A stretch of 64,000 bases of DNA from positions 4,374 through 68,373 of the forward strand of contig DFZO01000001.1 in assembly GCA_002383495.1 (NCBI GenBank), read 5' to 3'. Of the stretch, positions 1 to 12,331 are shown piece by piece (position 1 is the first letter of the stretch; each line of letters starts with the position of its first letter). Under the pieces are notes generated by a model. The model was given only the letters and a program-made list of their open reading frames with translations, did not search any database and had not been told where the DNA came from. Source of the DNA: Syntrophaceae bacterium UBA4054 (GTDB lineage: Bacteria > Desulfobacterota > Syntrophia > Syntrophales > UBA4778). The translations under genes and the position numbers were made by a program.

Positions 1-497
1 GTAAAAAGAAGAATGTCCCTCAGCTCTGCCTTGTTGTCATTTGTGACCGCCGTTTTGATGTAACACGGTATACCCAGCAGACGGCACATCCCGATGGCTT
101 CTATTACCCTCCGGAAACTGCCCTCTTTTCTGTTGCGGTCGTGTTTTTCTTCTATGGCGCTATCCAGGCTGAACCCCACCAGTTGAATGCGTTTGCGGAT
201 TTGCGGCGTTCGTATGAGGGGTAATATTCTATCTTTGAAGAGGTAACCATTCGTCAGGATTTCGAAATCGATGGTGTTCTCGGCAAGGCTCTGGAAGATA
301 TCTTCAAGCTGGGGGTGAAGCGAAAGCTCTCCCGACCCGGTGATGCCGGCATATCTGAATCCCAGACTCCGAAGCTGTCTCATGAGGTCGGAGAATATCT
401 CCTTTTCCATGTACACGGGCTTTGCGGACTTTGCCACAAGGCAGTGCCGGCAGGTAAAATTGCAGAAATTAACGATATCGATTGTCGGCGCTTTCAT
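1..497 (-). CDS. radical SAM enzyme, second paralog (partial; 3' end runs off the window start)
   Basis: My own minus-strand translation from the ATG at 495-497 gives MKAPTIDIVNFCNFTCRHCLVAK...GITGSGELSLHP...NRKEGSFRRVIEAIG. It has the CX3CX2C cluster motif and aligns block by block with the 469-1461 product. It overlaps that gene's 3' end by 29 nt. It is absent from the ORF track because it stays open to the window edge. Confidence 0.75.
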   Translation of the reverse strand, partial: MKAPTIDIVNFCNFTCRHCLVAKSAKPVYMEKEIFSDLMRQLRSLGFRYAGITGSGELSLHPQLEDIFQSLAENTIDFEILTNGYLFKDRILPLIRTPQIRKRIQLVGFSLDSAIEEKHDRNRKEGSFRRVIEAIGMCRLLGIPCYIKTAVTNDNKAELRDILLF

Positions 498-1461
498 CCG
501 CTTCCATCCACTTCATTTTTCCGAAAAGCCGGAAACACTTCGTACAGTTGACAGGCCAGTCTTTTTTGAGGTCCGAACGCATGACCTTATCCATGAACCA
601 TGCCAGCGTCCGGTAATGCCGGAGTATCCCTTCCTCGATGCCGATTTCCCGGATGTTCCCCAGATATTCTCTTCCGAATACATTCGGACTGTCTCCGTTC
701 GTCGGGTGGGAGAGATTACAGCAGAAGATGAAATTCCCCAGGTGGTCAAAGGAGATTCCATTAGCGGGATTGCAGAGGGGAACCCTGTAATCCGGATGTG
801 CAAATCCTTCGATACTGATGTTCAATAAAAATGACGGCATTATCCTGCCGGTTATTTGCCTGATGACTTCGGAATATTCTTCAGCCGTGGGCAAGAGATT
901 GCTCGATACAAGACGGGGCGTGGGCGTGAGCAGGACATACCCAAGGCTTCCTGCTCCTATCGATGCGCATAAATGGGCGACTTCCACGATGTCTTTCCTG
1001 TTTTCACTGTGAACGATGCTTTTGACGGACACAGGAATCTTCTCTTTCACACAGGCTTCGATTGAACTGATGACCCTGTCGAAACTTCCTTCTTTTCTTA
1101 TCATATCGTGGGAAGCCGATGTCGCGCCATCAAGGCTGAAACAGACCCCGTCGAGATGTCTTCTCACTTTAGAATCAAAGAGGGGAAGAATCTTATCTTC
1201 AAACAGAAAACCGTTGCTGACCAGGCTGAATCGAACCCCATAATCGACCAGAAGATCACAGACACGGTTCAACTCGGGGTGAAGAGCGGGTTCGCCGCCC
1301 GTAAGACACACATTCATCATGCCTACGGAAGACATTTCCCTGAGCACTAAATCGAGGAGATCGGGAGACATATGCGCCCTGGGCGCCACTTTGTCCCTGA
1401 GGCAGTGGATGCAATCGAAATTACAATGATTCGTGATGTCTATGGCAATGTTATATAGCAT
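469..1461 (-). CDS. radical SAM enzyme with C-terminal Cys-rich (SPASM/twitch-like) extension, peptide-maturase type
   Basis: 330 aa. The N-terminus has NHCNFDCIHC (CX3CX2C) and a GGEP SAM-binding motif. The C-terminal part has CNPANGISFDHLGNFIFCCN and CTKC, suggesting an auxiliary-cluster domain. It sits next to a PqqD-family gene. Confidence 0.85.
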   Translation of the reverse strand: MLYNIAIDITNHCNFDCIHCLRDKVAPRAHMSPDLLDLVLREMSSVGMMNVCLTGGEPALHPELNRVCDLLVDYGVRFSLVSNGFLFEDKILPLFDSKVRRHLDGVCFSLDGATSASHDMIRKEGSFDRVISSIEACVKEKIPVSVKSIVHSENRKDIVEVAHLCASIGAGSLGYVLLTPTPRLVSSNLLPTAEEYSEVIRQITGRIMPSFLLNISIEGFAHPDYRVPLCNPANGISFDHLGNFIFCCNLSHPTNGDSPNVFGREYLGNIREIGIEEGILRHYRTLAWFMDKVMRSDLKKDWPVNCTKCFRLFGKMKWMEADESADNRYR

Positions 1462-1504
1462 ATCATGAATAAAACGTTGAAAGGCAAGGACCGCGGAACG
1501 GGTT

Positions 1505-1520
1505 TCCGGTCACCACCGGA
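1505..1520 (-). promoter_or_regulatory. short GC-rich intercistronic hairpin between the 96-aa gene and the radical SAM gene
   Basis: The minus strand reads UCCGGU-GGUG-ACCGGA, a 6-bp stem with a 4-nt loop, inside the 71-nt spacer 1462-1532. The position resembles attenuator hairpins that follow precursor genes in RiPP operons. No U-tract follows. Confidence 0.3.
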
Positions 1521-1532
1521 TTTCGGTATGAT

Positions 1533-1823
1533 TTATAGTTTTTGTGCCAGTTTCGTGAAGACATTCTGCAATGCATAGTTGACCCTCGTAAAATTGGTCT
1601 GCAGGGCAACATTGGATTCTGTGACTTGTTGCAGCACCGCGTAACTGCTTTCGGCAATGACCTGCGCGTTGGCCACATAGGTATCTATGGCAGCAACGGT
1701 TGTATTGGTCACCGGAGTATTGGAAACTGCAAGGACATACTGGGTTTTGGTCACCCATGCCCTGACAGTCAGAATCTGGGACTCATCCCTTATATCGGGT
1801 CTTATGTATTTTTTCTTTTCCAT
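1533..1823 (-). CDS. hypothetical 96-aa protein, Cys-free and T/V/N/A/Q-rich; candidate substrate of the adjacent rSAM enzymes
   Basis: The ORF overlaps the PqqD gene's 3' end by 22 nt, which suggests translational coupling, and ends 71 nt before the rSAM gene. The sequence looks like a real protein (MEKKKYIRPDIRDE...NAQVIAESSYAVLQQVTESNVALQTNF...). The other minus frames give R/C/H-rich off-frame-looking products. Confidence 0.45.
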   Translation of the reverse strand: MEKKKYIRPDIRDESQILTVRAWVTKTQYVLAVSNTPVTNTTVAAIDTYVANAQVIAESSYAVLQQVTESNVALQTNFTRVNYALQNVFTKLAQKL

Positions 1824-2062
1824 GAGGGTGCCTTTTTCTCAAGTCTATCCATGAAATCCAGGATGTCTTTTTCCAACTCCTCTTCCCCAACGTCGTATTG
1901 CTCAAGCAATGCCGATTTTATTTCCTCTACCGTCTTGCCGTCGTTGACCATCTTGGCAATAAGGAGAGCTGTCTCATTGAGAAAATAGCTTGTGCTCCGC
2001 TCGACATCAATCATCATGCCTTCGCCATCGACTTCTGCCAGAATGATCTCGTCTTTCATCAT
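1802..2062 (-). CDS. PqqD-family protein (RiPP-recognition-element type peptide chaperone)
   Basis: 86 aa, with LNETALLIAKMVNDGKTVEEIKSALLEQYDV..EELEKDILDFMDRLEKK, which matches the PqqD winged-helix pattern. AAAGAGG lies 8 nt upstream of the ATG. It is the first gene of the rSAM operon. Confidence 0.75.
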   Translation of the reverse strand: MMKDEIILAEVDGEGMMIDVERSTSYFLNETALLIAKMVNDGKTVEEIKSALLEQYDVGEEELEKDILDFMDRLEKKAPSWKRKNT

Positions 2063-2206
2063 CGTTCGGAACCTCTTTCGTTAATATAGACTATATGTTG
2101 CTATTTTGCAACTGAAGTCTGATCAATGAAGATGTCCCTGTTTTGCGATCACCATACTTATTCTGATTGCATGTGAACTCTGAGGCCACGAACTCCCGAG
2201 AGGTGC

Positions 2207-2515: not shown

Positions 2516-2629
2516 GCCCTCATCGTGGGGAACAAGACCATAAGGCCGGGCAACACGGTCCGGGTGGATTTCGACGAAAAGGGGTACGCCTGCATTGCCC
2601 ATTTTGTCCAGAAGATCGAGAAGGGATAG
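2516..2629 (+). pseudogene. 3'-terminal remnant of a repeat-domain (D-family) gene
   Basis: My own translation ALIVGNKTIRPGNTVRVDFDEKGYACIAHFVQKIEKG* aligns with the C-terminus of the 6115-6825 product (VFVGNKKIIKGDTVRVGFDEKKGAYVAHTVLKIEKR*). There is no start codon, and an in-frame stop lies just upstream. Confidence 0.6.
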
Positions 2630-2694
2630 ATATTGTCAGAGGTCCATGAAAACAAAACAGGAGGTATCACAAAGACAGGAAAGGAGGAATAGCC

Positions 2695-3009
2695 ATGAAA
2701 CGTTTTATCATTGGGATCATCATCATTACATTGTGTCTGAGTCTCGGTCCCCTTGCGGGAGTCGGGTCGGCGGGATGGCCGGACGCAAATTCGGCATCGG
2801 AGGGCTGTTCGGTCAAAAAGTTTTCCTGTTGTAAGGCACAAAAACATATCGGGACGATGTCGGTCAAGATGTGCTGGAATGTGCGTAATTCTGCCTGTGC
2901 ACCCTGCAAGAGCCGGCATGAGCTTGACAGGGAATGCAACGAGAAATTCAAGAATTGTGGAAACAGATGCCGTCTGACTGTCAAATGCGGAACTTTCGAG
3001 CAGTGGTAA
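2695..3009 (+). CDS. small secreted cysteine-rich protein, paralog P1 (most divergent)
   Basis: 104 aa with AAGGAGG upstream. MKRFIIGIIIITLCLSLGPLAGVGSAG looks like a signal peptide. The mature part has 10 Cys on the family scaffold (..MCWNV....CAPC.........CNEK...C...C). Confidence 0.75.
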   Translation: MKRFIIGIIIITLCLSLGPLAGVGSAGWPDANSASEGCSVKKFSCCKAQKHIGTMSVKMCWNVRNSACAPCKSRHELDRECNEKFKNCGNRCRLTVKCGTFEQW

Positions 3010-3276
3010 TTGGCCCGTCCTGAAGAATGACCATTTCATGGTTCTTTTCACGGCATCTGTTCTCTGAAAACTGATGCCGGCGACAGGGTAAAGTGTTTCT
3101 CCGCGGCAAGCGGCATCACATCTGCAATGAGACCGTCAAATAGGGGCGGCAGCGATAGAACAAGATGCCTGCGGGAAGCTCAAGAAGGGCATTCCGGCTT
3201 ATGAAGGAAATAAAGTTGTTTCAATAAACATGAAAGAATCGTTGGCAACCAAATCAACAAAAAGGAGGACAGTACC

Positions 3277-3624
3277 ATGAAGAAAGGTGTTTTGATTCTG
3301 GGGGTGCTCGTCATTATGATTTTTGCTTCCTTTGCTGTTAACATAGGGATAGCCCGGGCAGATTGTGGTGACGAGAAGGTGTATTGCAAGATAGAAGGGG
3401 GCACGGAAGTAGGTACCGTCAAGGTTGGCAAGTGCTATGACTGGAAACATGCTAAATGTAAAGTGTGTCATGGCAACGCATATTTTGCCAAACAGTGCAA
3501 TAAAAAAATAATAGCGTGTGTCGGGAAATGCTGGGGTTGCATAATGGGGAAATGTTGGTGGACGGACTGGAAAAAATGCGAAGCTTGCTATGATCAAAAC
3601 GGAAACAAGCACGATCCGAAGTAG
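3277..3624 (+). CDS. small secreted cysteine-rich protein, paralog P2
   Basis: 115 aa with AAGGAGG upstream. The signal peptide ends in ARA. The mature part has 12 Cys, VGTVKVGKCYDW, CKVCHG (CxxCH) and CNKK. Confidence 0.85.
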   Translation: MKKGVLILGVLVIMIFASFAVNIGIARADCGDEKVYCKIEGGTEVGTVKVGKCYDWKHAKCKVCHGNAYFAKQCNKKIIACVGKCWGCIMGKCWWTDWKKCEACYDQNGNKHDPK

Positions 3625-3639
3625 ACTATCTCTACGGCT

Positions 3640-3784
3640 ATTGTCTCGAGGCGCAATCAATACCTCGGAGGCCATCGTCGTCGGGAACAAGATCATCAAA
3701 GCCGGCAATACGGTGCGTGTCGGCTATGACAGGGAAGACAACACCTTTATGGCACATATGGTGCTGAAGATCGAAAAGAGATAA
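3640..3784 (+). pseudogene. 3'-terminal remnant of a repeat-domain (D-family) gene
   Basis: The track ORF 3590-3784 ends in ..NTSEAIVVGNKIIKAGNTVRVGYDREDNTFMAHMVLKIEKR*, homologous to the last ~42 aa of the 6115-6825 product. Its 5' part overlaps the P2 gene and has no domain homology. The left boundary is approximate. Confidence 0.6.
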
Positions 3785-3800
3785 GAAAGGAGAAAATACC

Positions 3801-4082
3801 ATGAAACGTTTTATGATCGGAACCATCGCAGTGATTGCGCTTTGTCTGTTCATCGTATCCTTTTCTGGAGTCTCGTCGGCGGGATGTTCGGACTCAAAGT
3901 GCCCATGCTATAAAAACAATACAACCATTTCTGTCGGAAAGGTCACGGTCGGGAATTGCTGGAAGTGGTCGCCGCCGGGTTGTGATCTTTGCCACGGCTA
4001 CAAAGGGATTGTAAAGAAGTGCAACAAGAAGTACAAGGAGTGTAACAATGAATGCTATTCATCTGAAAGTGATTGCTCCTGA
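3801..4082 (+). CDS. small secreted cysteine-rich protein, paralog P3
   Basis: 93 aa with AAAGGAG upstream. The signal peptide ends in SSA. The mature part has 10 Cys, VGKVTVGNCWKW, CDLCHG (CxxCH) and CNKK. Confidence 0.85.
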   Translation: MKRFMIGTIAVIALCLFIVSFSGVSSAGCSDSKCPCYKNNTTISVGKVTVGNCWKWSPPGCDLCHGYKGIVKKCNKKYKECNNECYSSESDCS

Positions 4083-4113
4083 TAAAATATGAATACTCAA
4101 TGAATAACACATC

Positions 4114-4122
4114 ATTAATTAA
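4114..4122. promoter_or_regulatory. third copy of the palindromic ATTAATTAA core
   Basis: tcATTAATTAAtg lies 34 nt upstream of the P4 start. The other two copies I found in the window sit in the conserved motifs at 2371-2379 and 15364-15372. Confidence 0.3.
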
Positions 4123-4155
4123 TGCGCCCAAAGGCGGTTCGCATCGGAGGTGAAA

Positions 4156-4485
4156 ATGAAAACTTTGGCAATTGCATTTGTTATGTTTGTGGTGATATTT
4201 TTTTCAGGGTTTGTCGGATTCAGCTATGCCGGCTGCCCAGATTGGCATGGATTCTGTTATGCAGACGCCGGAAATGGGAGGCTGTTAGGAAAGGTCACGG
4301 TCGGCAAGTGCTGGAAGTGGAATGGGAATGGCTGTGATTTTTGTCGCGGGAACAAGGAGCCGGTCCGGCATTGTAATGGCAAATATGTACTGTGTTTGTT
4401 CAACTGCTGGGCATGTGACGATAAAAAGGGTAACGATAGAACCTGCTGGGACAAGCATGGTAACAGGCATGATTCAAATTGGTGA
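4156..4485 (+). CDS. small secreted cysteine-rich protein, paralog P4
   Basis: The track ORF starts at GTG 4150. The ATG at 4156 is better placed, 5 nt after GGAGG. The signal peptide ends in SYA. The mature part has 10 Cys, GKVTVGKCWKW, CDFCRG (no His) and CNGK. Confidence 0.8.
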   Translation: MKTLAIAFVMFVVIFFSGFVGFSYAGCPDWHGFCYADAGNGRLLGKVTVGKCWKWNGNGCDFCRGNKEPVRHCNGKYVLCLFNCWACDDKKGNDRTCWDKHGNRHDSNW

Positions 4486-4570
4486 GCGTTAGCCCTCGCT
4501 GGCATGTCGTGCTGCAGCATGACATCGGGTGTGAATCGCCCGATGAGGATTGCGCTAAAATGAATTTTAG

Positions 4571-4705
4571 CACGTGCCCCTGTACCTGGATCTGCTGCCC
4601 GATCAAGCGGAGGCGCGGGAAATGCTGACAAAGCACGGCTTTGAAATCGTGAGATCCACGGACGAGGCGGCGTTTTACCTCGTCGTGGCAAAAACGATAA
4701 AATAG
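4571..4705 (+). pseudogene. possible C-terminal fragment of an unrelated gene (class-I methyltransferase-like tail)
   Basis: My own translation after an in-frame stop gives HVPLYLDLLPDQAEAREMLTKHGFEIVRSTDEAAFYLVVAKTIK*. This resembles the ..GFE.V......YLVVA.K C-termini of SAM-dependent methyltransferases. It has no start codon or RBS. The family assignment is from memory only. Confidence 0.3.
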
Positions 4706-4762
4706 GATTTGATGGAACGTCCTCGATTATCAGGTATCAGGCAAGAAAGGAGGTCATATACC

Positions 4763-5137
4763 ATGAAGAAAGGTGTTTTGATTTTGGGGGTGCTCATCAT
4801 TATGATTTTTGCTTCATTTGCTGTTAACATAGGGATAGCCCGGGCGGGCTGTAGTGACAGAAAGGTGTCTTGCAAGATAGAAGGGCGCATTGACGTAGGC
4901 ACCGTCTATGTTGGCACGTGTTATGACTGGAGAACAACTCGTTGCAATTTTTGTCATGGCAACGCATATACTGTCAAACAGTGCAATAAAAAAATAGTGG
5001 CGTGTGCGTATTTTGGGAACTGCTGGGGTTGCTGGAAAGAAGCGAGGGGGGGGAATTGGACTGAAACCTGCTATCCATCGGGTAATGGCAAGTTAACACC
5101 GAGGGGACATGTTTCGATGTATAATTTGGAGGATTGA
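4763..5137 (+). CDS. small secreted cysteine-rich protein, paralog P5 (chimeric 3' end)
   Basis: The track ORF 4709-5137 has its likely true start at the ATG at 4763, after AAAGGAGG. MKKGVLILGVLIIMIFASFAVNIGIARA is nearly identical to the P2/P6 signal peptides. The mature part has 10 Cys and CNFCHG (CxxCH). The last ~19 codons are encoded by the repeat element at 5080-5163. Confidence 0.8.
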   Translation: MKKGVLILGVLIIMIFASFAVNIGIARAGCSDRKVSCKIEGRIDVGTVYVGTCYDWRTTRCNFCHGNAYTVKQCNKKIVACAYFGNCWGCWKEARGGNWTETCYPSGNGKLTPRGHVSMYNLED

Positions 5138-5163
5138 CCACAAATAAAACGAAAAAAGGAGGA
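5080..5163 (+). repeat. ~80-nt repeated upstream module R, copy 1 (contains TGTATAAT and the AAGGAGG RBS)
   Basis: gggtaatggcaagttaacaccgaggggacatgtttcgatgtataatttggaggattgaccacaaataaaac...aaggagg is near-identical to 5572-5650, with a few substitutions and indels. TATAAT at 5120-5125 is preceded directly by TG, so it could be an extended -10. Copy 1 overlaps the P5 3' end and precedes P6. Confidence 0.7.
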
Positions 5164-5170
5164 CAGTACC

Positions 5171-5515
5171 ATGAAGAAATGTGTTTTGATTTTGGGGGTG
5201 CTCGTCATTATGGTTTTTGCTTCCTTTGCTGTTAACATAGGAACAGCCCGGGCAAGCTGCAGTAACATAGAGGTGGATTGTAAGATAGAAGGGAGCATTA
5301 AAGTAGGCACCGTCTATGTTGGCGGGTGCTACGACTGGGCTAATAATGAGTGTAAAGTGTGTCATGGCAACGCATACCCTGCCAAACAGTGCAATAAAAA
5401 AATAGTGGCGTGTGCGTATTTCGGGAACTGTTTGGGTTGCTGGATGAGTGGGGATACAGATCCTTCTCATGAAGTTTGCTATGATATAAACGGAAACAAG
5501 CACGATCCGAAGTGA
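5171..5515 (+). CDS. small secreted cysteine-rich protein, paralog P6
   Basis: 114 aa with AAGGAGG upstream. The signal peptide ends in ARA. The mature part has 10 Cys, VGTVYVGGCYDW, CKVCHG (CxxCH) and CNKK. Its C-terminal NGNKHDPK is shared with P2. Confidence 0.85.
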   Translation: MKKCVLILGVLVIMVFASFAVNIGTARASCSNIEVDCKIEGSIKVGTVYVGGCYDWANNECKVCHGNAYPAKQCNKKIVACAYFGNCLGCWMSGDTDPSHEVCYDINGNKHDPK

Positions 5516-5571
5516 ACCATCCCTCCGGTTATTGTCTCGAGGCGCAATGAACAACTCAACAACAGCCCCTA

Positions 5572-5650
5572 GGGTAATGGCAGTTAACACCGAGTGGACA
5601 TGTTTCGATGTATAATTTGGAGGATTGACCACCAATAAAACAAAAGGAGG
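5572..5650 (+). repeat. repeated upstream module R, copy 2
   Basis: Near-identical to 5080-5163, with TATAAT at 5611-5616. This copy is entirely intergenic and precedes the 5659 gene. Confidence 0.7.
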
Positions 5651-5658
5651 CACTGCCC

Positions 5659-6099
5659 ATGAAAAAAATCTTTATTCTTTGTTTGGCATTATCTTTCCTT
5701 GCCGTTTTCTCGACTGGCGATCTCATCGCCGCTGAGAAGGCAAAACCCGTGAAGCAGAAAGCATCAGCCAAAAGATCCGTAAAGGTGCCTGTCCCGAAGG
5801 TGATTGAGACATTCCTGGGTGTCGTTGCCGGGATAGACACGGCGGAAAAGACGCTCGCCGTCCGGGCGCGCTACGCCGCGGAATACTATTTCGATTCGGG
5901 CTTCATGATGGAGAAGGAATTTGTGCTCGATGAAGACGACATCACATTCGACATCTCGGAAGCCAAATTCGCGGGATGCGGTCCCCAAAGTTGCGCAAAG
6001 GCGGAGGATTTCAAAACGGGGGATCATGTCCGGGTAGCCTATGAAAGGAAGGGCGACAAATATATCGCCAATATCGTGCTGAGAATCGGGAAAAGATAG
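5659..6099 (+). CDS. secreted protein with one copy of a ~95-aa repeat domain (D1)
   Basis: 146 aa with AAGGAGG upstream. The signal peptide is MKKIFILCLALSFLAVFSTGDLIAA, followed by a Lys/Ala-rich linker. The domain runs VIETFLGVVAGIDTAEKTLAVRA...ITFDISEAKF...GDHVRVAYERKGDKYIANIVLRIGKR. Confidence 0.8.
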   Translation: MKKIFILCLALSFLAVFSTGDLIAAEKAKPVKQKASAKRSVKVPVPKVIETFLGVVAGIDTAEKTLAVRARYAAEYYFDSGFMMEKEFVLDEDDITFDISEAKFAGCGPQSCAKAEDFKTGDHVRVAYERKGDKYIANIVLRIGKR

Positions 6100-6114
6100 G
6101 AAAGGAGGAAAATC

Positions 6115-6825
6115 ATGAAGAAACGATTCATCATTTACTGTGCGGCAGTATTGACCATTGTTTTTTTCATCACGGGGGCCATGGCCCAGGATAAGGCCAA
6201 AGCGGCGACGAAGAAGGCAACAAAACAAAAGAAAGTAAAGGTGGAAGCCCCTAAAGTGATCGAGACCTTTCTGGGAACGGTCGCCGGTGTGGACGCAGCC
6301 GGAAAGAAACTGACCGTTCGCGCATTGTACGGAACGGAATACCACATCAGCGGAGGCAACATCGCCACGAGGGAGTTCATCGCCGACGAAGTGGATCTAA
6401 CCTTTGACATTGCCAAGGCGAAGCTTGTGGGATTTTCGGGAATCGGGGACATCCACGCAGGCAGCCATGTCCGGGTGGGTTATGACTGCAAAGGTGAAGC
6501 CCTGATCGCCCACACGGTTCTCCACATCCCGCCGAAGCGGGACAGATCGGTCACAAGGACTTTTCTGGGCACGGTTACCGGAGTGGATGAAGCGAAAAAG
6601 GCTTTGACTGTGAGGGCAATCCTGGAGGGGGAATTTTACGTAAACGAGGCAAATACGGACCTCAAGGAGTATGTCCTTGACGAGAAAGACATCACCTTTG
6701 ACACCTCAAAGGCCGTCTTCGTGGGGAATAAGAAGATTATCAAGGGAGACACTGTCCGCGTGGGTTTTGACGAAAAGAAGGGCGCCTATGTCGCCCATAC
6801 GGTGCTGAAAATCGAAAAGAGATAG
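6115..6825 (+). CDS. secreted protein with two tandem copies of the same ~95-aa domain (D2)
   Basis: 236 aa with AAGGAGG upstream, a signal peptide and a K/A-rich linker. It has two repeats, each with TFLGTV.GVD.A.K.LTVRA ... TFD..KA..VG ... G..VRVG.D.K....AHTVL.I. Confidence 0.8.
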   Translation: MKKRFIIYCAAVLTIVFFITGAMAQDKAKAATKKATKQKKVKVEAPKVIETFLGTVAGVDAAGKKLTVRALYGTEYHISGGNIATREFIADEVDLTFDIAKAKLVGFSGIGDIHAGSHVRVGYDCKGEALIAHTVLHIPPKRDRSVTRTFLGTVTGVDEAKKALTVRAILEGEFYVNEANTDLKEYVLDEKDITFDTSKAVFVGNKKIIKGDTVRVGFDEKKGAYVAHTVLKIEKR

Positions 6826-7141: not shown

Positions 7142-8716
7142 ATGGTTTACTTGTGGTTGAAATCCTGCTGGATGAACCGCCTGACCCTGGCGGTAATGAT
7201 CATTGTCTTCCTCCAGGCATTTCCGGCCCTTGGTGAAGACAAAAAGATTTCCGGAGCGACACAGGACGCAAAAGTCAGGACCCTCACCCTGGCCGACTGC
7301 GTCATGCTCGCCCTGCAGAACAACGTGGCCATCCGCACGGCTTATCTGGACAGAATTTCCCAGAGGATGTTCCTCCGCGTCGCGGAGGACAAATTCATAC
7401 CGCAGCCGTCCCTCTCCTTCTCCACTACAACCACATCCAACTACAACACCGATAATACCCGGACGCAGGCTGCCGCACAGGACGCCAAGTTTGTGACCAC
7501 CCTGACGCTTCCTACTGGAGGCGCCGTTAATTTCACCTGGGACAATCCGGCGAACAAACCGGATGTGGGGCAGGATTACGGCTACAGTTCGGGCTGGAGC
7601 GTCACCTTCACGCAGCCGATCCTCAAGAATGCCGGAATCGATGCGGCCACCCAATCCGTCCGGCAGGCGCGAATCGCCGAGGAACAGGCCGTTCTTGATC
7701 TGAAAGACACCCTCACAAGCACGATCACGACGACCGTCACGAACTATCGGGCATACCTGTCGGCATTGCGCAGCTACGACATTCAGGTGAAGGGTCTCGA
7801 AACGGCGAGGCAGACCCTCGAAACGAACAAAGCGCTGATCGCAGCCGGAAGGATGGCCCAGACGGAAATTATCCAAACGGAGAACGATGTCGCCAACCAG
7901 GAGTTGAGCGTCATCACCGCCAGGAACAGTATTGACTCGTCTCTCCTGACACTGCTGCAGACGCTCGACCTGGACAGAAACACCCGGTTCCTGCCCGTTG
8001 AGGAGCCGGAGCAGAAGGTATCCCCTCCGTCATTGCAGGAGGCGATCGCCATAGCGATCAAGAACCGCTCGGACTACATCAAGGCGGTTCAGAACCTCGA
8101 TCTAGCAAACCTGGACATGGCCGTCAAGAAACGGGGTCTCCTCTGGGATCTTTCGCTGGTGACAGGCGCCGGCCGCACCGGCACGGATGACACCTACCGG
8201 GGGGCTTTCGGGGATCAGCCGCCCGGGAAAAGCAACTGGAACGTGGGGCTCACGCTCAACATTCCTTTGCGGGACCTGGCAACGGAAAGCACCTATGTGT
8301 CGGCAAAGGTCGCATGGGAAAAAGCCCGGATCAACCTGAAAAAACTGACGGCAGACATCGGGATCGACGTGCAGAACAAGCTCCGCGACATCGATGTCAA
8401 TTACAGGAGCTATATCCTGTCAAAGAAAGGACGGGAACTCGCGGAAAAGAAACTCGCGATCGAACAGGAAAAACTGAAACTCGGCCGGACGACCAATTTC
8501 CAACTGGTCAGTTTCCAGAACGACGTGAGAAACCAGCGAACGACGGAGTTGCAGGCCCTGATCACCTATCTCAATTCCTTGACGGCCCTGGACCAATCGC
8601 TGGGCATTATCCTCAACCGCTGGAACATAGCCGTCAAACGCGAAGACGTGGACGTTAAACTGCCCGAGACGGAGAAAAAAGCGGCTAATCAGAAGGTGTC
8701 GGCAAAGGCAGAGTAA
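7142..8716 (+). CDS. TolC-family outer-membrane efflux protein
   Basis: 524 aa. It has an N-terminal signal-like segment (an alternative start is MNRL at 7172). The pattern LTLADCVMLALQNNVAIR and the two-fold repeated coiled-coil/beta architecture are typical of the OEP family. It is the first gene of a four-gene exporter operon. Confidence 0.85.
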   Translation: MVYLWLKSCWMNRLTLAVMIIVFLQAFPALGEDKKISGATQDAKVRTLTLADCVMLALQNNVAIRTAYLDRISQRMFLRVAEDKFIPQPSLSFSTTTTSNYNTDNTRTQAAAQDAKFVTTLTLPTGGAVNFTWDNPANKPDVGQDYGYSSGWSVTFTQPILKNAGIDAATQSVRQARIAEEQAVLDLKDTLTSTITTTVTNYRAYLSALRSYDIQVKGLETARQTLETNKALIAAGRMAQTEIIQTENDVANQELSVITARNSIDSSLLTLLQTLDLDRNTRFLPVEEPEQKVSPPSLQEAIAIAIKNRSDYIKAVQNLDLANLDMAVKKRGLLWDLSLVTGAGRTGTDDTYRGAFGDQPPGKSNWNVGLTLNIPLRDLATESTYVSAKVAWEKARINLKKLTADIGIDVQNKLRDIDVNYRSYILSKKGRELAEKKLAIEQEKLKLGRTTNFQLVSFQNDVRNQRTTELQALITYLNSLTALDQSLGIILNRWNIAVKREDVDVKLPETEKKAANQKVSAKAE

Positions 8717-8721
8717 AAATC

Positions 8722-10458
8722 ATGGGACAGGACGAAATCATCTACAGGAACATTCTTGAAAATATGTCCGACGGGGTCATGACGATTGGCCTCGACGGCC
8801 ACATCCTCACTTTCAATGAAGCAGCGGAACGGATTCTGAATCTCAAGAGAACAGAGGTCATCAACCGCCTCTTCGGTGAGGTTTTCCTGACCAGGGAAGG
8901 CAACGACGACTTCAATCAGGCCATTCTGAGCGCCGTCTACGACGCCTCCATGTCACAGAACAGCACCGTCAGCTACCACACGGAAGAAAAGACGCTCGCC
9001 CTTTCCGTCACCACATCCTTCCTCCGATCCGCACCGGAGGGAGAGAAGAGGAGCGCGGCCGTCATCGTCGTTTTCAGCGACCGTACAGAGATAGAACAGC
9101 TTCGTCAAAAAGAAAGCGAGCTGAACGAAGAAATCAAGGCCCGGCACCAGGAATTGCAGAAATCCTACCTTGAACTGGAGGATTCAAATGCCCTTCTCCA
9201 GACCGCTCTCAAGAAGGTGCAGATGATCCGCGTCACGGCAACCGCTTTGATCATCCTCCTTTTCGTCGCCATCGGGTTTGTAACCTGGACAAGGACCCAC
9301 CATGGAAAATCAGACGGCATGCCGCTCAAGAGAACAAAAGACGGCGCCCCCATGACCTATACCGTCGTGCCCAGAAATCTCACGGACAGCATTTCTCTCA
9401 AGGGAAACCTGAGGCCGATAAAAGTGGTAAACGTGACGAGCCCCTTCACGGGAACGGTGAAGGAAAAGTTGTTCCAATACGGCGAAACGGTCGCGAAAGG
9501 TCAGATCCTCATCCGCATGGACGTCACGGAGGCGGAATCGAAGTACCGGGACGCTAAAGCGGCCTTCATCAAGGCCGGCGAAAAATATCGGGAAGTCATG
9601 AACTGGCAGAAGAGCGACGAGATGGCCAAGGAGACACGATCCCTGGACAAGACCAAGAAAACATTCCAGGAGACGGAGATCCTTTTCAAGAAAGGCATCG
9701 TTTCTGCCAATGAATACGATGATGCAAAAACCAACTATGAAAATGAACTTCAGACCTTCAGGACCACCCAGGCAAAAGGAGAGGGAGAAAACCTGATCCT
9801 GGCAAAGCTGGAATATGACAACGCGAAAGCAAAACTCAACGAACTTCAGTCTCAGCTGAGCGGGGCGGTTGTCCGCGCCCCCGTTTCCGGCACGGTTATC
9901 CGCTCCGGACTGGCGGACAAGGACAAAAAAGAAAAGGTCATCGAGAGAGGCGCCTCTTTCAACCAGGGTGAGATGCTGGTATCCATCGGCGACACGAGCG
10001 GGCTCTCCGTGACGGCTTCCGTGGACGAGATGGAGGTCACGAAAATCAAGAAAGGTCAGGAGGTCGTGATTACCGGGGAGGCTTATCCCGGCATCTCGCT
10101 CAAGGGGACGGTAAACTATATCTCCTCACAGGCCAATGTCAAGGCAAGCGACGGGGACGGGCCAAAAGTCGCGACGTTTGACATCGGCATCGCCGTGGCG
10201 TCTCTCTCTCCGGAGGCGGCGAACATGGTGCGTCTCGGCATGTCCTCGAATCTGTCCATTCTCATCCTGAACAAGCCAGATGCTATTCTGGTTCCAATCA
10301 ACGCCGTCCGGACGGATGGGGATAACCGCGTCGTGACGGTGATCGATAAGACAAACCGAGAGAGAAAAACGGTCAAGGTGGAAACGGGGATCACCACCCT
10401 GGACTCCGTGGAGATTATCAAGGGCCTGAACCGCGGGGACGAGGTTGTCCTGAATTGA
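8722..10458 (+). CDS. membrane-fusion (HlyD/MacA-type periplasmic adaptor) protein with N-terminal cytoplasmic PAS domain
   Basis: 578 aa. Residues ~5-120 match the PAS pattern (IYRNILENMSDGVMTIGLDGHILTFNEAAERILNLKRTEV). A coiled-coil stretch follows, then a TM segment VTATALIILLFVAIGFVTW. The rest is adaptor-like, with motifs GTVKEKLFQYGETVAKGQILIRMD and VRAPVSGTVI. Confidence 0.8.
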   Translation: MGQDEIIYRNILENMSDGVMTIGLDGHILTFNEAAERILNLKRTEVINRLFGEVFLTREGNDDFNQAILSAVYDASMSQNSTVSYHTEEKTLALSVTTSFLRSAPEGEKRSAAVIVVFSDRTEIEQLRQKESELNEEIKARHQELQKSYLELEDSNALLQTALKKVQMIRVTATALIILLFVAIGFVTWTRTHHGKSDGMPLKRTKDGAPMTYTVVPRNLTDSISLKGNLRPIKVVNVTSPFTGTVKEKLFQYGETVAKGQILIRMDVTEAESKYRDAKAAFIKAGEKYREVMNWQKSDEMAKETRSLDKTKKTFQETEILFKKGIVSANEYDDAKTNYENELQTFRTTQAKGEGENLILAKLEYDNAKAKLNELQSQLSGAVVRAPVSGTVIRSGLADKDKKEKVIERGASFNQGEMLVSIGDTSGLSVTASVDEMEVTKIKKGQEVVITGEAYPGISLKGTVNYISSQANVKASDGDGPKVATFDIGIAVASLSPEAANMVRLGMSSNLSILILNKPDAILVPINAVRTDGDNRVVTVIDKTNRERKTVKVETGITTLDSVEIIKGLNRGDEVVLN

Positions 10459-10467
10459 CGGAATGGA

Positions 10468-11148
10468 ATGGATGTCATGCCCATGCTCAAAGCCGTGGAT
10501 ATCCACAAAACCTATAACGTTGGACCCACGAAGATCGACGTTCTGAAGGGGATTTCCCTGGAAGTGGAGCGTGGAGAACTGCTTGCCGTCGTCGGGGCTT
10601 CCGGCAGCGGCAAGTCTACCCTGATGCACATGCTGGGACTCCTCGAACAGCCCACATCGGGGGACTATTACATCGAAGGGGAAAAGATCAGTTACGACAA
10701 CGATCAGGAGCTCTCAAGCCTCAGAAACCGGAAGATCGGATTCGTTTTCCAGCAGTATTACCTGCTCCCGCGGCTCACCGCCCTGGATAACGTGGGCATC
10801 CCTCTCGTTTATCGCGGGATGAAGGACACCGAGATCAAGGAGCGCTCCATGGCCCTCCTCAAAAAACTGGAAATGACAGACCGGGCCGGACACAAACCCG
10901 ACGAAATGTCCGGGGGCCAGCAACAGCGCGTGGCCATCGCCCGCGCCCTGGTGGGGAACCCCTCTCTCATCCTTGCCGACGAGCCGACGGGAGCTCTCGA
11001 TACGCATACGGGTCAGGAAATCATGAACATCTTCCGGAATCTGAACGAGGAGGAAGGAATCACCATTATTGTGATCACCCACGACCCGAAGATCGCCGCG
11101 CAGTGCAAACGCAGGGAAGAGCTGTCCGACGGGCTGATCGTGAAATGA
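10468..11148 (+). CDS. ABC transporter ATP-binding protein, MacB/LolD/FtsE-like
   Basis: 226 aa with Walker [10 protein letters not shown], signature MSGGQQQR and Walker [13 protein letters not shown]. Confidence 0.9.
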
Positions 11149-11158
11149 TGAAAGGTTC

Positions 11159-12331
11159 ATGATACTGAAGACAAACATAACGGAGGCCTTCCGGAGCCTT
11201 GCCAGCACGAAGCAGCGGACAATCCTTGCGCTGATCGGAATCATCATTGGGATCGGCTCCGTCATCGGCATGGTTTCCATAGGCGCCATCGTCGAGAACG
11301 AAGCGCTCAAGCAATTCCGGGACATGGGCGTCGACATCGCCATGGTGCGAAAAACAGGTTCCGACAAGTCCGCGGAAATGACCCTGAAGGATATTCTCGA
11401 TTTGAAGAAACATGTCCCCGCAGTGCTGGAGGTCGCTCCTTTTCTAACCGCGGAAGGCGATTACGGCTCCGGCAGTAAAAAACTGGATCTGGTACAGATG
11501 GGCGTCACGGAGTCCTTTTTCAACCTCAACAAAATCAGGGCAAGCGAAGGCCGGCTCATCACGGACCTCGACGAGTACAGGTACTTCTGTGTCGTCGGCA
11601 GGGAAACAAGTAATTACCTGAAAAGTCACGGTGCGACGGACATCATCGGCCGTCAGATCCCCCTCGGCAACCGGATTTTCACGATTGTGGGAATCCTCGA
11701 GACCGTCCCGGAGGGCGGAATGAGGCCCTATGGAATCAACAGTTCGGCCATGATGCACATCACGACGGCCGGAAGATCGTTTCAGGATCAGACGCTGAAC
11801 AGTTTTATGGCCCGCCTTGACGGGAAGACATCAACCGCCGAGAGCAAAGCGGCGATCGAGGGTTACTTCACAAAAACAGCGAGGGGACTTCGGGTCTCTG
11901 TCAATACGGCGGAAGAGTTGATCGCGGGCATGAAAAAACAGATGCAGCTTTTTTCGATCCTCCTGGGCGCCATCGGCAGCATCGCCCTGATCGTAGGCGG
12001 CATCGGCGTGATGAACGTGATGCTCATTTCCGTGACCGAGCGGCGCAGAGAAATTGGCCTCCGCCGGGCCTTGGGGGCACAGCAAAAGGATATTCAAACG
12101 CAGTTCATCATCGAATCGGTGACGCTCTGCCTGTTCGGCGGCATCATCGGCATATTTCTCGGCATCGTCGTGTCGTTTGTTTTTGCGCTGATCTCCAAGT
12201 GGGAATTCCTCATATCCTACGGGTCCATCGCCCTCGGCTTCGGCGTGGCCGCCGCCGTGGGAATTTTTTTCGGCTATTATCCGGCCCGAACAGCCTCAAG
12301 ACTCGACCCCATCAGGGCACTGCGGTCTTAA
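11159..12331 (+). CDS. ABC transporter permease, FtsX/MacB type with periplasmic domain
   Basis: 390 aa. It has an N-terminal TM, a large extracytoplasmic domain and a C-terminal FtsX-like 3-TM bundle (RRREIGLRRALGAQQKDI...). Confidence 0.85.
   Translation: MILKTNITEAFRSLASTKQRTILALIGIIIGIGSVIGMVSIGAIVENEALKQFRDMGVDIAMVRKTGSDKSAEMTLKDILDLKKHVPAVLEVAPFLTAEGDYGSGSKKLDLVQMGVTESFFNLNKIRASEGRLITDLDEYRYFCVVGRETSNYLKSHGATDIIGRQIPLGNRIFTIVGILETVPEGGMRPYGINSSAMMHITTAGRSFQDQTLNSFMARLDGKTSTAESKAAIEGYFTKTARGLRVSVNTAEELIAGMKKQMQLFSILLGAIGSIALIVGGIGVMNVMLISVTERRREIGLRRALGAQQKDIQTQFIIESVTLCLFGGIIGIFLGIVVSFVFALISKWEFLISYGSIALGFGVAAAVGIFFGYYPARTASRLDPIRALRS

Follow-up and report, generated by a model that had tools for sequence, protein, structure and literature searches.

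SynChlorMet (SCM) cassettes (ScmC, ScmD, ScmE and ScmF; TIGR04249, TIGR04248, TIGR04250 and TIGR04251) bring together two paralogous radical S-adenosylmethionine (rSAM) enzymes, a PqqD-family protein and an HprK-like protein, and to our knowledge their precursors have never been identified. Part of this logic is also found in the phosphorylated lasso peptides, which belong to the peptides that are made by ribosomes and modified after translation (RiPPs): an HPr-kinase homologue phosphorylates the linear precursor, a RiPP recognition element (RRE) accelerates the reaction, and in the case of pseudomycoidin a nucleotidyltransferase then adds a hexose to the phosphate (PMC8498205, PMC10368454). 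The RRE-recognised YxxPxL motif of lasso leaders occupies positions -17 to -12 (PMC10368454). In this work we analysed a stretch of 64,000 nucleotides (nt) from Syntrophaceae bacterium UBA4054 (contig DFZO01000001.1, positions 4,374 to 68,373; hereafter the window), whose left edge carries a PqqD-family gene, a gene for a peptide of 96 amino acids (aa) without cysteine, and two overlapping rSAM genes. With a probability of about 0.7, these genes belong to an eight-gene RiPP-type peptide-maturation operon that has the 96-aa open reading frame (ORF) as its substrate. A preliminary description of the window had read these genes as a RiPP-like operon, with a PqqD/RRE protein that hands the Cys-free peptide to the two rSAM enzymes, and this reading gained support from synteny and from the family placement of the rSAM proteins.

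Window genes were taken from ORF calls with translations, and families were assigned by Pfam and NCBIfam hidden Markov model (HMM) searches against curated cut-offs. Contigs with an identical protein for the first rSAM enzyme (L001-L006) were used to extend the locus past position 1. Scanning one genome for each GTDB species gave 11 loci, and four further contigs from metagenomes or metagenome-assembled genomes (MAGs) also carry the cassette (L022-L025). Gene order was compared only as far as each contig reaches. The features at the left edge of the window are as follows:

1802-2062, minus strand: PqqD-family gene (Pfam PF05402), 86 aa, first gene of the operon, presumed RRE
1533-1823, minus strand: candidate precursor peptide gene, 96 aa, no Cys, overlapping the PqqD gene by 22 nt
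1758-1823, minus strand: putative leader, residues 1-22 (MEKKKYIRPDIRDESQILTVRA), from the conservation split and motif positions
1536-1757, minus strand: putative core, residues 23-96, 11-residue repeats from W23 and then a basic tail, from lag-11 periodicity and a repeat profile
469-1461, minus strand: rSAM1, 330 aa, motif CNFDCIHC, Pfam Radical_SAM (PF04055) at 73.5 bits
1-497, minus strand: rSAM2, N-terminal 165 of 331 codons, motif CNFTCRHC, remainder past the window edge, PF04055 at 63.1 bits
1462-1532, minus strand: intergenic spacer, 71 nt, with a small hairpin, no support as a functional element
2083-2111, minus strand: promoter-like sequence TTGCAA-17-TATATT some 20 nt upstream of the start codon of PqqD, from a consensus scan

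The minus-strand gene order, coordinates and overlaps given for positions 1-2062 in the preliminary description were reproduced for all ORFs. The two rSAM genes are indeed overlapping paralogues (∼35% identity, tblastn E ∼1e-53): rSAM2 starts at 497, 29 nt inside the end of the rSAM1 gene. The PqqD protein scored 55.5 bits with PF05402 (cut-off 23.4), and its top NCBIfam matches, to two models of lasso PqqD chaperones, reached 39.7 and 39.3 bits, under their cut-offs of 80 or 70 bits. The 96-aa ORF proved to be a genuine gene: its homologues form 21 protein clusters (42-93% identity, no known domain), and it stands intact beside the rSAM pair in every locus examined.

Past the window edge, the contigs L001-L006 complete rSAM2 (331 aa, L001 10965-11960) and then encode, in order, a 235-aa HprK-like protein, a 126-aa S24/S26 peptidase, a 161-aa MraZ/AbrB-like protein and a 385-aa PF14907 protein. 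The window thus holds the first four of eight conserved cassette genes. Several consecutive genes overlap by 22-29 nt, and the cassette is thus one tightly coupled operon. The preliminary description had suggested searching this side of the contig for peptidase or transporter genes; the extension supplied the peptidase, together with the HprK-like and PF14907 genes, and no transporter.

The order PqqD, peptide, rSAM1, rSAM2, HprK-like, S24, MraZ-like and PF14907 is fixed in the 11 loci, and L022-L025 agree with it. In every related locus the PqqD gene sits upstream of the peptide gene, and the ORF for the peptide, whose neighbourhood to rSAM pairs in other genomes the preliminary description had made the touchstone of its proposal, lies between the PqqD gene and the rSAM pair in 11 of 11 loci and in the four further contigs. 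The 11 loci come from MAGs named Syntrophales, Syntrophaceae, Desulfobacteraceae, Desulfonema and Thermodesulfobacteriota, and all named hosts of the cassette are Syntrophales or Thermodesulfobacteriota. The most divergent cassette (L022, rSAM1 47% identical) has a second PqqD gene in place of the MraZ-like gene and a 93-aa protein with an SRRLFLKG motif upstream. The flanks vary by locus (capsule export genes, an HD-domain gene and others).

Next, we examined the peptide in 32 unique sequences, which were compared for identity, Cys count and repeat profile. Mean pairwise identity was 85% for residues 1-22, 69% for residues 23-33 and 43% for the remainder. Invariant residues of the N-terminal part include Y6, P9, I11, E14, Q16-I-L-T-V20 and A22. 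Assuming cleavage after A22, positions -17 to -12 are taken up by the motif YxxPxI and positions -3 to -1 by V-x-A. Type I signal peptidases follow a -3/-1 rule, which V20-x-A22 would fit if, as we infer, the rule applies to this precursor. The first 11-residue unit begins exactly at W23. Because three independent indicators, namely the invariant V-x-A, the start of the first 11-mer and the position of YxxPxI, agree, the leader/core boundary was placed at A22/W23, with a putative cleavage site after A22.

The core (57-74 residues) is repetitive. Its self-identity at lag 11 was 0.238, compared with roughly 0.06-0.12 at most other lags, and lag 25 (14 + 11) was also elevated (0.186). An iterated profile found 137 units of the consensus x-[VI]-T-x-[TS]-[SNQ]-[YV]-A-L-Q-x in the 32 sequences, three to five per peptide, and a short basic tail closes the peptide. 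Cys is absent from 32 of 32 variants, which strengthens the case made in the preliminary description against thioether chemistry. Two genomes (L010 and L017) have tandem diverged copies of the gene. With its conserved leader, variable core, tandem copies and varying repeat number, the 96-aa ORF behaves like a precursor. The precursor, including those of the 32 variants that were scanned, matched no Pfam or NCBIfam family, and a profile search of the PDB gave chance-level matches only, to heptad-repeat segments. The AlphaFold2 (AF2) model showed no globular fold and a long helix at residues 40-95 (mean pLDDT 70.9, pTM 0.35), with pLDDT >85 only beyond about residue 60. Compared with window positions 1533-1823, the JGI contig L001, otherwise identical, has the precursor ORF frameshifted after residue 46 (L001 9638-9952, a 104-aa read-through), and the L002 precursor has ambiguous residues at four positions; these differences may reflect assembly error or strain microheterogeneity focused in the core region.

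In both rSAM enzymes the CX3CX2C motif and four C-terminal Cys are kept in 11 of 11 orthologues of each paralogue. The shared auxiliary set is C230-X11-G-X4-C247 and C306-X2-C309 (C-X11-12-G-X4-C ... C-X2-C across the paralogues), and each paralogue has an extra Cys of its own, C248 in rSAM1 and C263 in rSAM2. The C-terminal Cys-rich auxiliary region described earlier is therefore present as a reduced set of four Cys and not as the full seven-Cys SPASM motif (CX9-15GX4C ... CX2CX5CX3C ... C; two auxiliary clusters): only CX11-12GX4C and CX2C are kept, the CX5CX3C half is absent, and neither protein has a Pfam SPASM domain. By comparison with BtrN and SkfB, the four-Cys pattern presumably corresponds to a twitch-type domain with a single auxiliary cluster, and in their motifs the auxiliary domains of rSAM1 and rSAM2 resemble such twitch domains, not a full SPASM.

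Neither rSAM protein reached an NCBIfam equivalog cut-off. The best match of both was ScmE (89 and 61 bits, cut-off 400); ScmF gave 75 and 58 bits (cut-off 400), and other high matches were WgkB (83 bits, cut-off 650), AhbD, a tungsten-cofactor maturase, MoaA and GeoRSP. No epimerase family was found among the 25 rSAM matches listed. The preliminary description had taken the pair for peptide-modifying enzymes, and the classification by NCBIfam that it proposed agrees with this: the proteins fall outside the cofactor or sulfatase families, and the peptide-cassette proteins ScmE and ScmF match them best. The nearest solved structures of rSAM1 are BlsE, SkfB and PqqE (E 1e-11 to 1e-6), and its family is small (66 clusters). 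Both paralogues also keep one Cys that is not part of the cluster motifs (C137/C138). An H-atom-donor Cys is used by rSAM epimerases such as YydG (PMC9389541), and C137/C138 would fit such a role. The residue is compatible with an ether-forming reaction or with an epimerisation in which a Cys returns the H atom. An assignment to epimerase chemistry by this residue was considered and set aside, since the residue is compatible with it and yet non-diagnostic; the rSAM chemistry was therefore left without an assignment.

More distant rSAM1 homologues (35-41% identity) were rejected as cassette members, as they stand in single-rSAM loci of different context. Two lone homologues of 35-40% identity (L020 7523-9038 and L018 497-2085) lie beside a ∼155-aa protein with a faint PqqD signal. 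The ∼155-aa protein of L020 ends in FMGTTCCKIPPLPKF and may represent a fusion of an RRE with its own substrate tail.

The 235-aa protein downstream of rSAM2 matched neither a Pfam family nor ScmC. It has an invariant Walker A motif (GPSxxGKST) followed by an invariant DD, and the top two matches in a PDB profile search with its family were HPr kinases (E 0.02 and 0.17). Its AF2 model (pLDDT 90.9, pTM 0.89) was compared by Foldseek, and HprK/P (1ko7) came out on top (E 3e-7), followed by the PEPCK family and further HprK/P entries. Because of the Walker A/DD motifs, the HPr-kinase profile matches and the Foldseek result, we assigned it as an HprK/PEPCK-fold P-loop protein, and from the modelled fold it is probably a phosphotransferase. 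Its family is small (54 clusters). The 385-aa protein is a PF14907 (NTP_transf_5) nucleotidyltransferase (164 bits), for which a sequence search of the PDB gave no match.

The S24/S26 peptidase passed the cut-off of TIGR02228 (archaeal/ER-type signal peptidase I, SipW-like; 56.2 bits, cut-off 51.85). GNSMYP, with the Ser nucleophile, and VHRL, with His and not Lys as the base, are kept in 11 orthologues. The catalytic Ser is at residue 10, which leaves no N-terminal membrane anchor and is atypical for a type I signal peptidase. We read the enzyme, from these motifs, as a putative soluble leader-type protease; its second-best match was the family of NiSOD maturation proteases, which remove an N-terminal propeptide. 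The 161-aa protein (L001 13053-13538, orthologues in L007-L024) has a weak MraZ/AbrB-type C-terminus and a conserved N-terminus, M-E-R-R-x-F-[IL]-K-T-G-L, that looks like a Tat signal from its sequence alone.

To place the cassette among its relatives, the 235-aa family profile was searched against 1.84 billion representatives, with 1180 relatives at E ≤1e-3 and just 11 at E ≤1e-30. A metagenome scan with a four-sequence outgroup alignment returned only distant HprK-like loci (80; L026-L105). An S24-like gene lies directly downstream of the HprK-like gene in 25 of these loci, rSAM genes are present in 12 and PqqD in 4; the pairing of HprK-like and S24 genes looks like a recurrent module. Sampled distant relatives weakly match HprK-related kinase A and B, HPr(Ser) kinase and ScmC, and because of the ScmC matches, ScmC-type proteins appear to share an HprK-like superfamily with the 235-aa protein.

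Among the distant loci, L045 (4173-9955) is an SCM-like metagenome cassette (ScmF 338 bits, ScmE 166, ScmD 57). Its order is a Cys-rich precursor (93 aa), HprK-like, PF14907, a second Cys-rich precursor (118 aa), a second HprK-like gene, two full-SPASM rSAM genes, PqqD and a SipW-like S24 peptidase. The L045 precursors carry a PYxxP leader motif, and all six protein families of the window cassette are present in this locus. L029 (2021-9279) has three rSAM, two PqqD and two HprK-like genes and an S24 peptidase, with a 47-aa Cys-free ORF at 8510-8653 (MKKKSAAKNKSKQPYEVPVIKKVRLTSSYRMAATQDAVSFSPSSGGF) that contains YEVPVI (YxxPxI). The set of RRE, HprK-like and S24 proteins with a YxxP-type leader thus recurs with unrelated cores, which provides independent support for the 96-aa ORF as the substrate. 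That Cys-rich precursors pair with full SPASM domains and Cys-free repeats with the reduced motif is suggestive at most, two cassette types having been compared. In L088 (7500-9209), the HprK-like, S24 and PqqD genes occur as a triad without an rSAM gene nearby, beside a 1012-aa outer-membrane-receptor-like gene.

Taken as a peptide-maturation operon, the cassette would work as follows, where we infer the identity of the substrate, all binding and catalytic steps and the nature of the product. PqqD would bind the near-invariant 22-residue leader through the lasso-type YxxPxI motif and present the peptide to the enzymes. The two twitch-type rSAM enzymes would each modify core repeat units without cysteine, with epimerisation at the alpha carbon, a C-O cross-link derived from Thr, a C-C cross-link or dehydrogenation as the candidate chemistries. 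The HprK-fold protein and the PF14907 protein may add a phosphate to Ser/Thr and possibly then a nucleotidyl or glycosyl group, as both enzyme types do in phosphorylated lasso peptides. The soluble Ser/His S24/S26 enzyme would cut after V20-x-A22 to give a product of ∼74 residues starting at W23.

Several observations weigh against this operon model or parts of it. The sequence-level similarity to HprK is weak (E 0.007-0.02), and no transporter gene is found in the cassette (L001-L006, L022-L025), which is unusual for a secreted RiPP. The penultimate leader residue (-2) is Arg, where lasso leaders typically have Thr. When the -17 spacing and the V-x-A rule were tried by eye on the L045 and L029 precursors, the rule transferred uncleanly and no clean signal-peptidase sites were seen; the cleavage rule is therefore supported within the window precursor family only. 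The near-invariant first repeat (WVTKTQYV) could belong to the recognition region and not to the core. Finally, the long core, modelled by AF2 as one helix, could be a small structural protein and not a classical peptide product.

The last point leads to an alternative that we regard as unlikely, with some real chance of being correct: the operon would mature a cell-associated small protein, and the ∼74-residue repeat product would be a modified amphipathic or structural protein that does not diffuse, which might be handled by the Tat-motif AbrB-like partner. The length of the core, its predicted helix and the hendecad periodicity are in keeping with this, as are the missing dedicated exporter or immunity gene and the conserved RRxF[IL]K Tat-type N-terminus of the 161-aa MraZ/AbrB-like protein. 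QhpC/QhpD offer an earlier case of a small protein subunit that carries a leader and is modified by an rSAM enzyme. The core varies fast, however, at 43% identity, as is usual for secreted or antagonistic peptides, and the Tat-like motif is read from the protein sequence alone.

We consider it improbable that the 96-aa protein is no substrate at all but a helical accessory or scaffold protein or an unrelated coiled coil, the true precursor being encoded elsewhere or being a non-peptide. The long AF2 helix agrees with such a role, an 11-residue periodicity is typical of amphipathic and coiled-coil helices, the PDB matches were confined to chance-level heptad-repeat segments, and 96 aa is long for a RiPP precursor. 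Against this, the peptide gene lies between the RRE and rSAM genes, overlapping the PqqD gene, in every locus, and it bears the precursor signature of an invariant N-terminus with a motif of a known RRE-binding type, a C-terminus that varies, and tandem copies. The loci have no second small conserved ORF in common, and the neighbouring Cys-rich ORFs have signal peptides and are missing from most loci.

A peptide-derived redox cofactor of the PQQ or mycofactocin kind, with one or two residues cross-linked and excised and the remainder discarded, is very improbable: PqqD, rSAM and a small peptide follow that logic, no transporter is present, and PqqE and the mycofactocin maturase MftC are among the remote rSAM matches, but the peptide has three to five repeats of varying number instead of a single conserved reactive site, the HMM scores are far under the cut-offs (mycofact_rSAM 61.9 bits, cut-off 265; PQQ_PqqD 32.5 for the PqqD protein, cut-off 46), no partner oxidoreductase is conserved in the flanks, and nothing in the PQQ and mycofactocin pathways corresponds to the kinase, nucleotidyltransferase and signal-peptidase-like genes.

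Returning to the eight-gene RiPP-type operon, a bolder version of it joins the repeat to the recurrent module. Here the two twitch-type rSAM enzymes would install a Cys-independent modification once per 11-residue repeat, and the RRE/HprK-like/S24 module acting on YxxPx(I/L) leaders would represent a large unrecognised superfamily of RiPP cassettes. This combined proposal is tentative, and the odds are rather against it. If it is true, the modification made once per repeat could be alternating epimerisation, or it could take the form of Thr-derived ether or C-C staples at T-x-T ... Q; a periodically modified peptide polymer of ∼74 residues would be a RiPP class without a described counterpart, and the module superfamily would take in SCM cassettes and Bacteroidota-type clusters.

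Outside the coding regions, two elements were examined. The promoter-like site at 2083-2111 agrees with the consensus at 9 of 12 positions; such sites are not clearly commoner in the region than in shuffled sequences, and it is weak evidence for a promoter. The small hairpin that the preliminary description placed in the 71-nt spacer exists, with a stem of 6 bp (UCCGGU/ACCGGA), but folding of the spacer is at chance level (z = 0.29; 116 of 200 shuffles fold as well), and the stem is kept solely among the closest relatives. For these two reasons it was dropped as a feature, and a role as attenuator or terminator was rejected.

On the plus strand, the window continues at 2525-6825 with an array that encodes six or more small paralogues (93-142 aa), each with a signal-peptide-like N-terminus and many Cys, of which the following are examples:

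2695-3009, plus strand: Cys-rich small ORF
3277-3624, plus strand: Cys-rich small ORF
3801-4082, plus strand: Cys-rich small ORF
4150-4485, plus strand: Cys-rich small ORF
4709-5137, plus strand: Cys-rich small ORF
5171-5515, plus strand: Cys-rich small ORF

The array is interleaved with short ORFs ending in ...VRVxFDE...KIEK[GR], and two larger proteins (5659-6099 and 6115-6825) repeat this module. No protein of the 2525-6825 array passed a Pfam cut-off. Homologues of the Cys-rich ORFs were found once in L010 and not in L024 or more distant loci. The Cys-rich ORFs (2695-5515) were considered as the real rSAM substrates and rejected: they have Sec-type signal peptides and no family matches, and they occur only in the window and L010.

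Further along, at 7142-12331 on the plus strand, lie genes for a TolC-like outer-membrane efflux protein (524 aa), a 578-aa membrane-fusion protein, a MacB-type ABC ATPase and an FtsX permease, all divergent from the cassette. The membrane-fusion protein has an N-terminal PAS domain, and such a fusion is unusual. This MacAB/TolC-like exporter was considered as a dedicated transporter and found no support: it adjoins the cassette in the window, L010 and L024, which are the closest relatives, and in no other locus, and it is probably not dedicated to the cassette. At the other end, the three closest relatives alone encode, convergently and just after the cassette, a 325-aa protein without a family match (L001 14720-15697, minus strand; orthologues are present in L010 and L024). 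Its N-terminus is like that of a lipoprotein, and its C-terminus is rich in Cys.

If the operon model is right, the cassette represents an uncharacterised RiPP family with a long Cys-free repeat substrate and with rSAM chemistry that is unpredictable from known families, and it would lead directly to new peptide chemistry by radical-SAM enzymes. Its hosts, syntrophs of the Syntrophales and other Thermodesulfobacteriota, are uncultured or grow slowly, and their secondary metabolism has hardly been explored. The recurrence of the recognition and processing module suggests candidate precursors for SCM-like cassettes such as L045 and a way to mine further families. No published description of the cassette was found in a literature search of incomplete coverage.

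Compared with known systems, the locus has the sequence-level features of a generic RRE-dependent rSAM RiPP cassette, with a PqqD/RRE gene beside the maturase genes, CX3CX2C rSAM enzymes with an auxiliary Cys set, and a co-located precursor with a conserved leader and a variable core. It is not of the sactipeptide or ranthipeptide type, in which core Cys serve as thioether donors, and the proteusin/PoyD-type combination of an NHLP or Nif11-type leader with a PoyD-family rSAM was not seen in it, with no NCBIfam or Pfam match for the precursor and no epimerase family among the 25 rSAM matches listed. TqqB (Thr-Gln ether), YydG (epimerase) and WgkB/SuiB/StrB (Lys-Trp C-C) are alike in having a SPASM/twitch-group rSAM with an RRE and in acting on Cys-free sites; their precursors, however, share no motif with the window peptide, and no chemistry is singled out. 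The window repeat has invariant-type Thr and Gln positions, which are seven and five residues apart, whereas in TqqA Thr and Gln are adjacent.

The kinship to GeoRSP suggested in the preliminary description is limited to remote matches (TIGR04302 and TIGR04303; rSAM 64 bits, cut-off 400; PqqD 27 bits, cut-off 100). No cassette protein passed a GeoRSP-specific family cut-off, and the SynChlorMet type is nearer. The HPr-rel-A systems (TIGR04352, TIGR04353 and TIGR04355) are similarly remote (HprK_rel_A 15 bits, cut-off 200; PqqD_rel_X 20 bits, cut-off 35), and HprK_rel_A is matched weakly by 26 of 31 members of the 235-aa family.

The phosphorylated and phosphoglycosylated lasso clusters (paeninodin, pseudomycoidin and Bradymonas bsf) are alike in a YxxPx(L/I) leader motif, which in the window peptide would lie at the lasso position of -17 to -12 if cleavage follows A22, in a discrete PqqD-type RRE, and in an HPr-kinase homologue and a nucleotidyltransferase, which there act on the lasso precursor. 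They differ in that the window cassette has two rSAM enzymes and an S24/S26 peptidase in place of the C and B2 proteins, and its core lacks Gly1 and the Asp/Glu ring-forming pattern. The genes called within ±10 kb in L001, L023 and L024 and on the shorter contigs L022 and L025 include no lasso cyclase (asparagine-synthetase-like C) or transglutaminase-type B2 protease, and the set is therefore partly lasso-like in its tailoring genes but not a lasso cluster.

On sequence comparison, the closest relative of the window cassette is the SynChlorMet type, with which it shares two rSAM paralogues, a PqqD-like protein and a ScmC-like HprK-fold protein. It stays under the family cut-offs (ScmE/ScmF 400, ScmD 100 and ScmC 125; ScmD scored 23.5 and ScmC gave no match). 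The SCM-like L045 has another gene order, Cys-rich precursors and full CX2CX5CX3-5C SPASM rSAM enzymes, whereas the window cassette has a Cys-free precursor and four auxiliary Cys. The logic of RRE, rSAM and leader peptide is well known, so the cassette is not categorically new. Neither the precursor nor the 235-aa protein falls under an NCBIfam or Pfam model, and no equivalog covers the rSAM enzymes. The new elements are a class of Cys-free 11-mer-repeat precursors, a reduced rSAM pair, a soluble signal-peptidase-like leader protease, and the combination itself: a lasso-type leader, RRE, kinase and nucleotidyltransferase joined with an SCM-type rSAM pair and a soluble leader protease, parts that are usually found in different systems.

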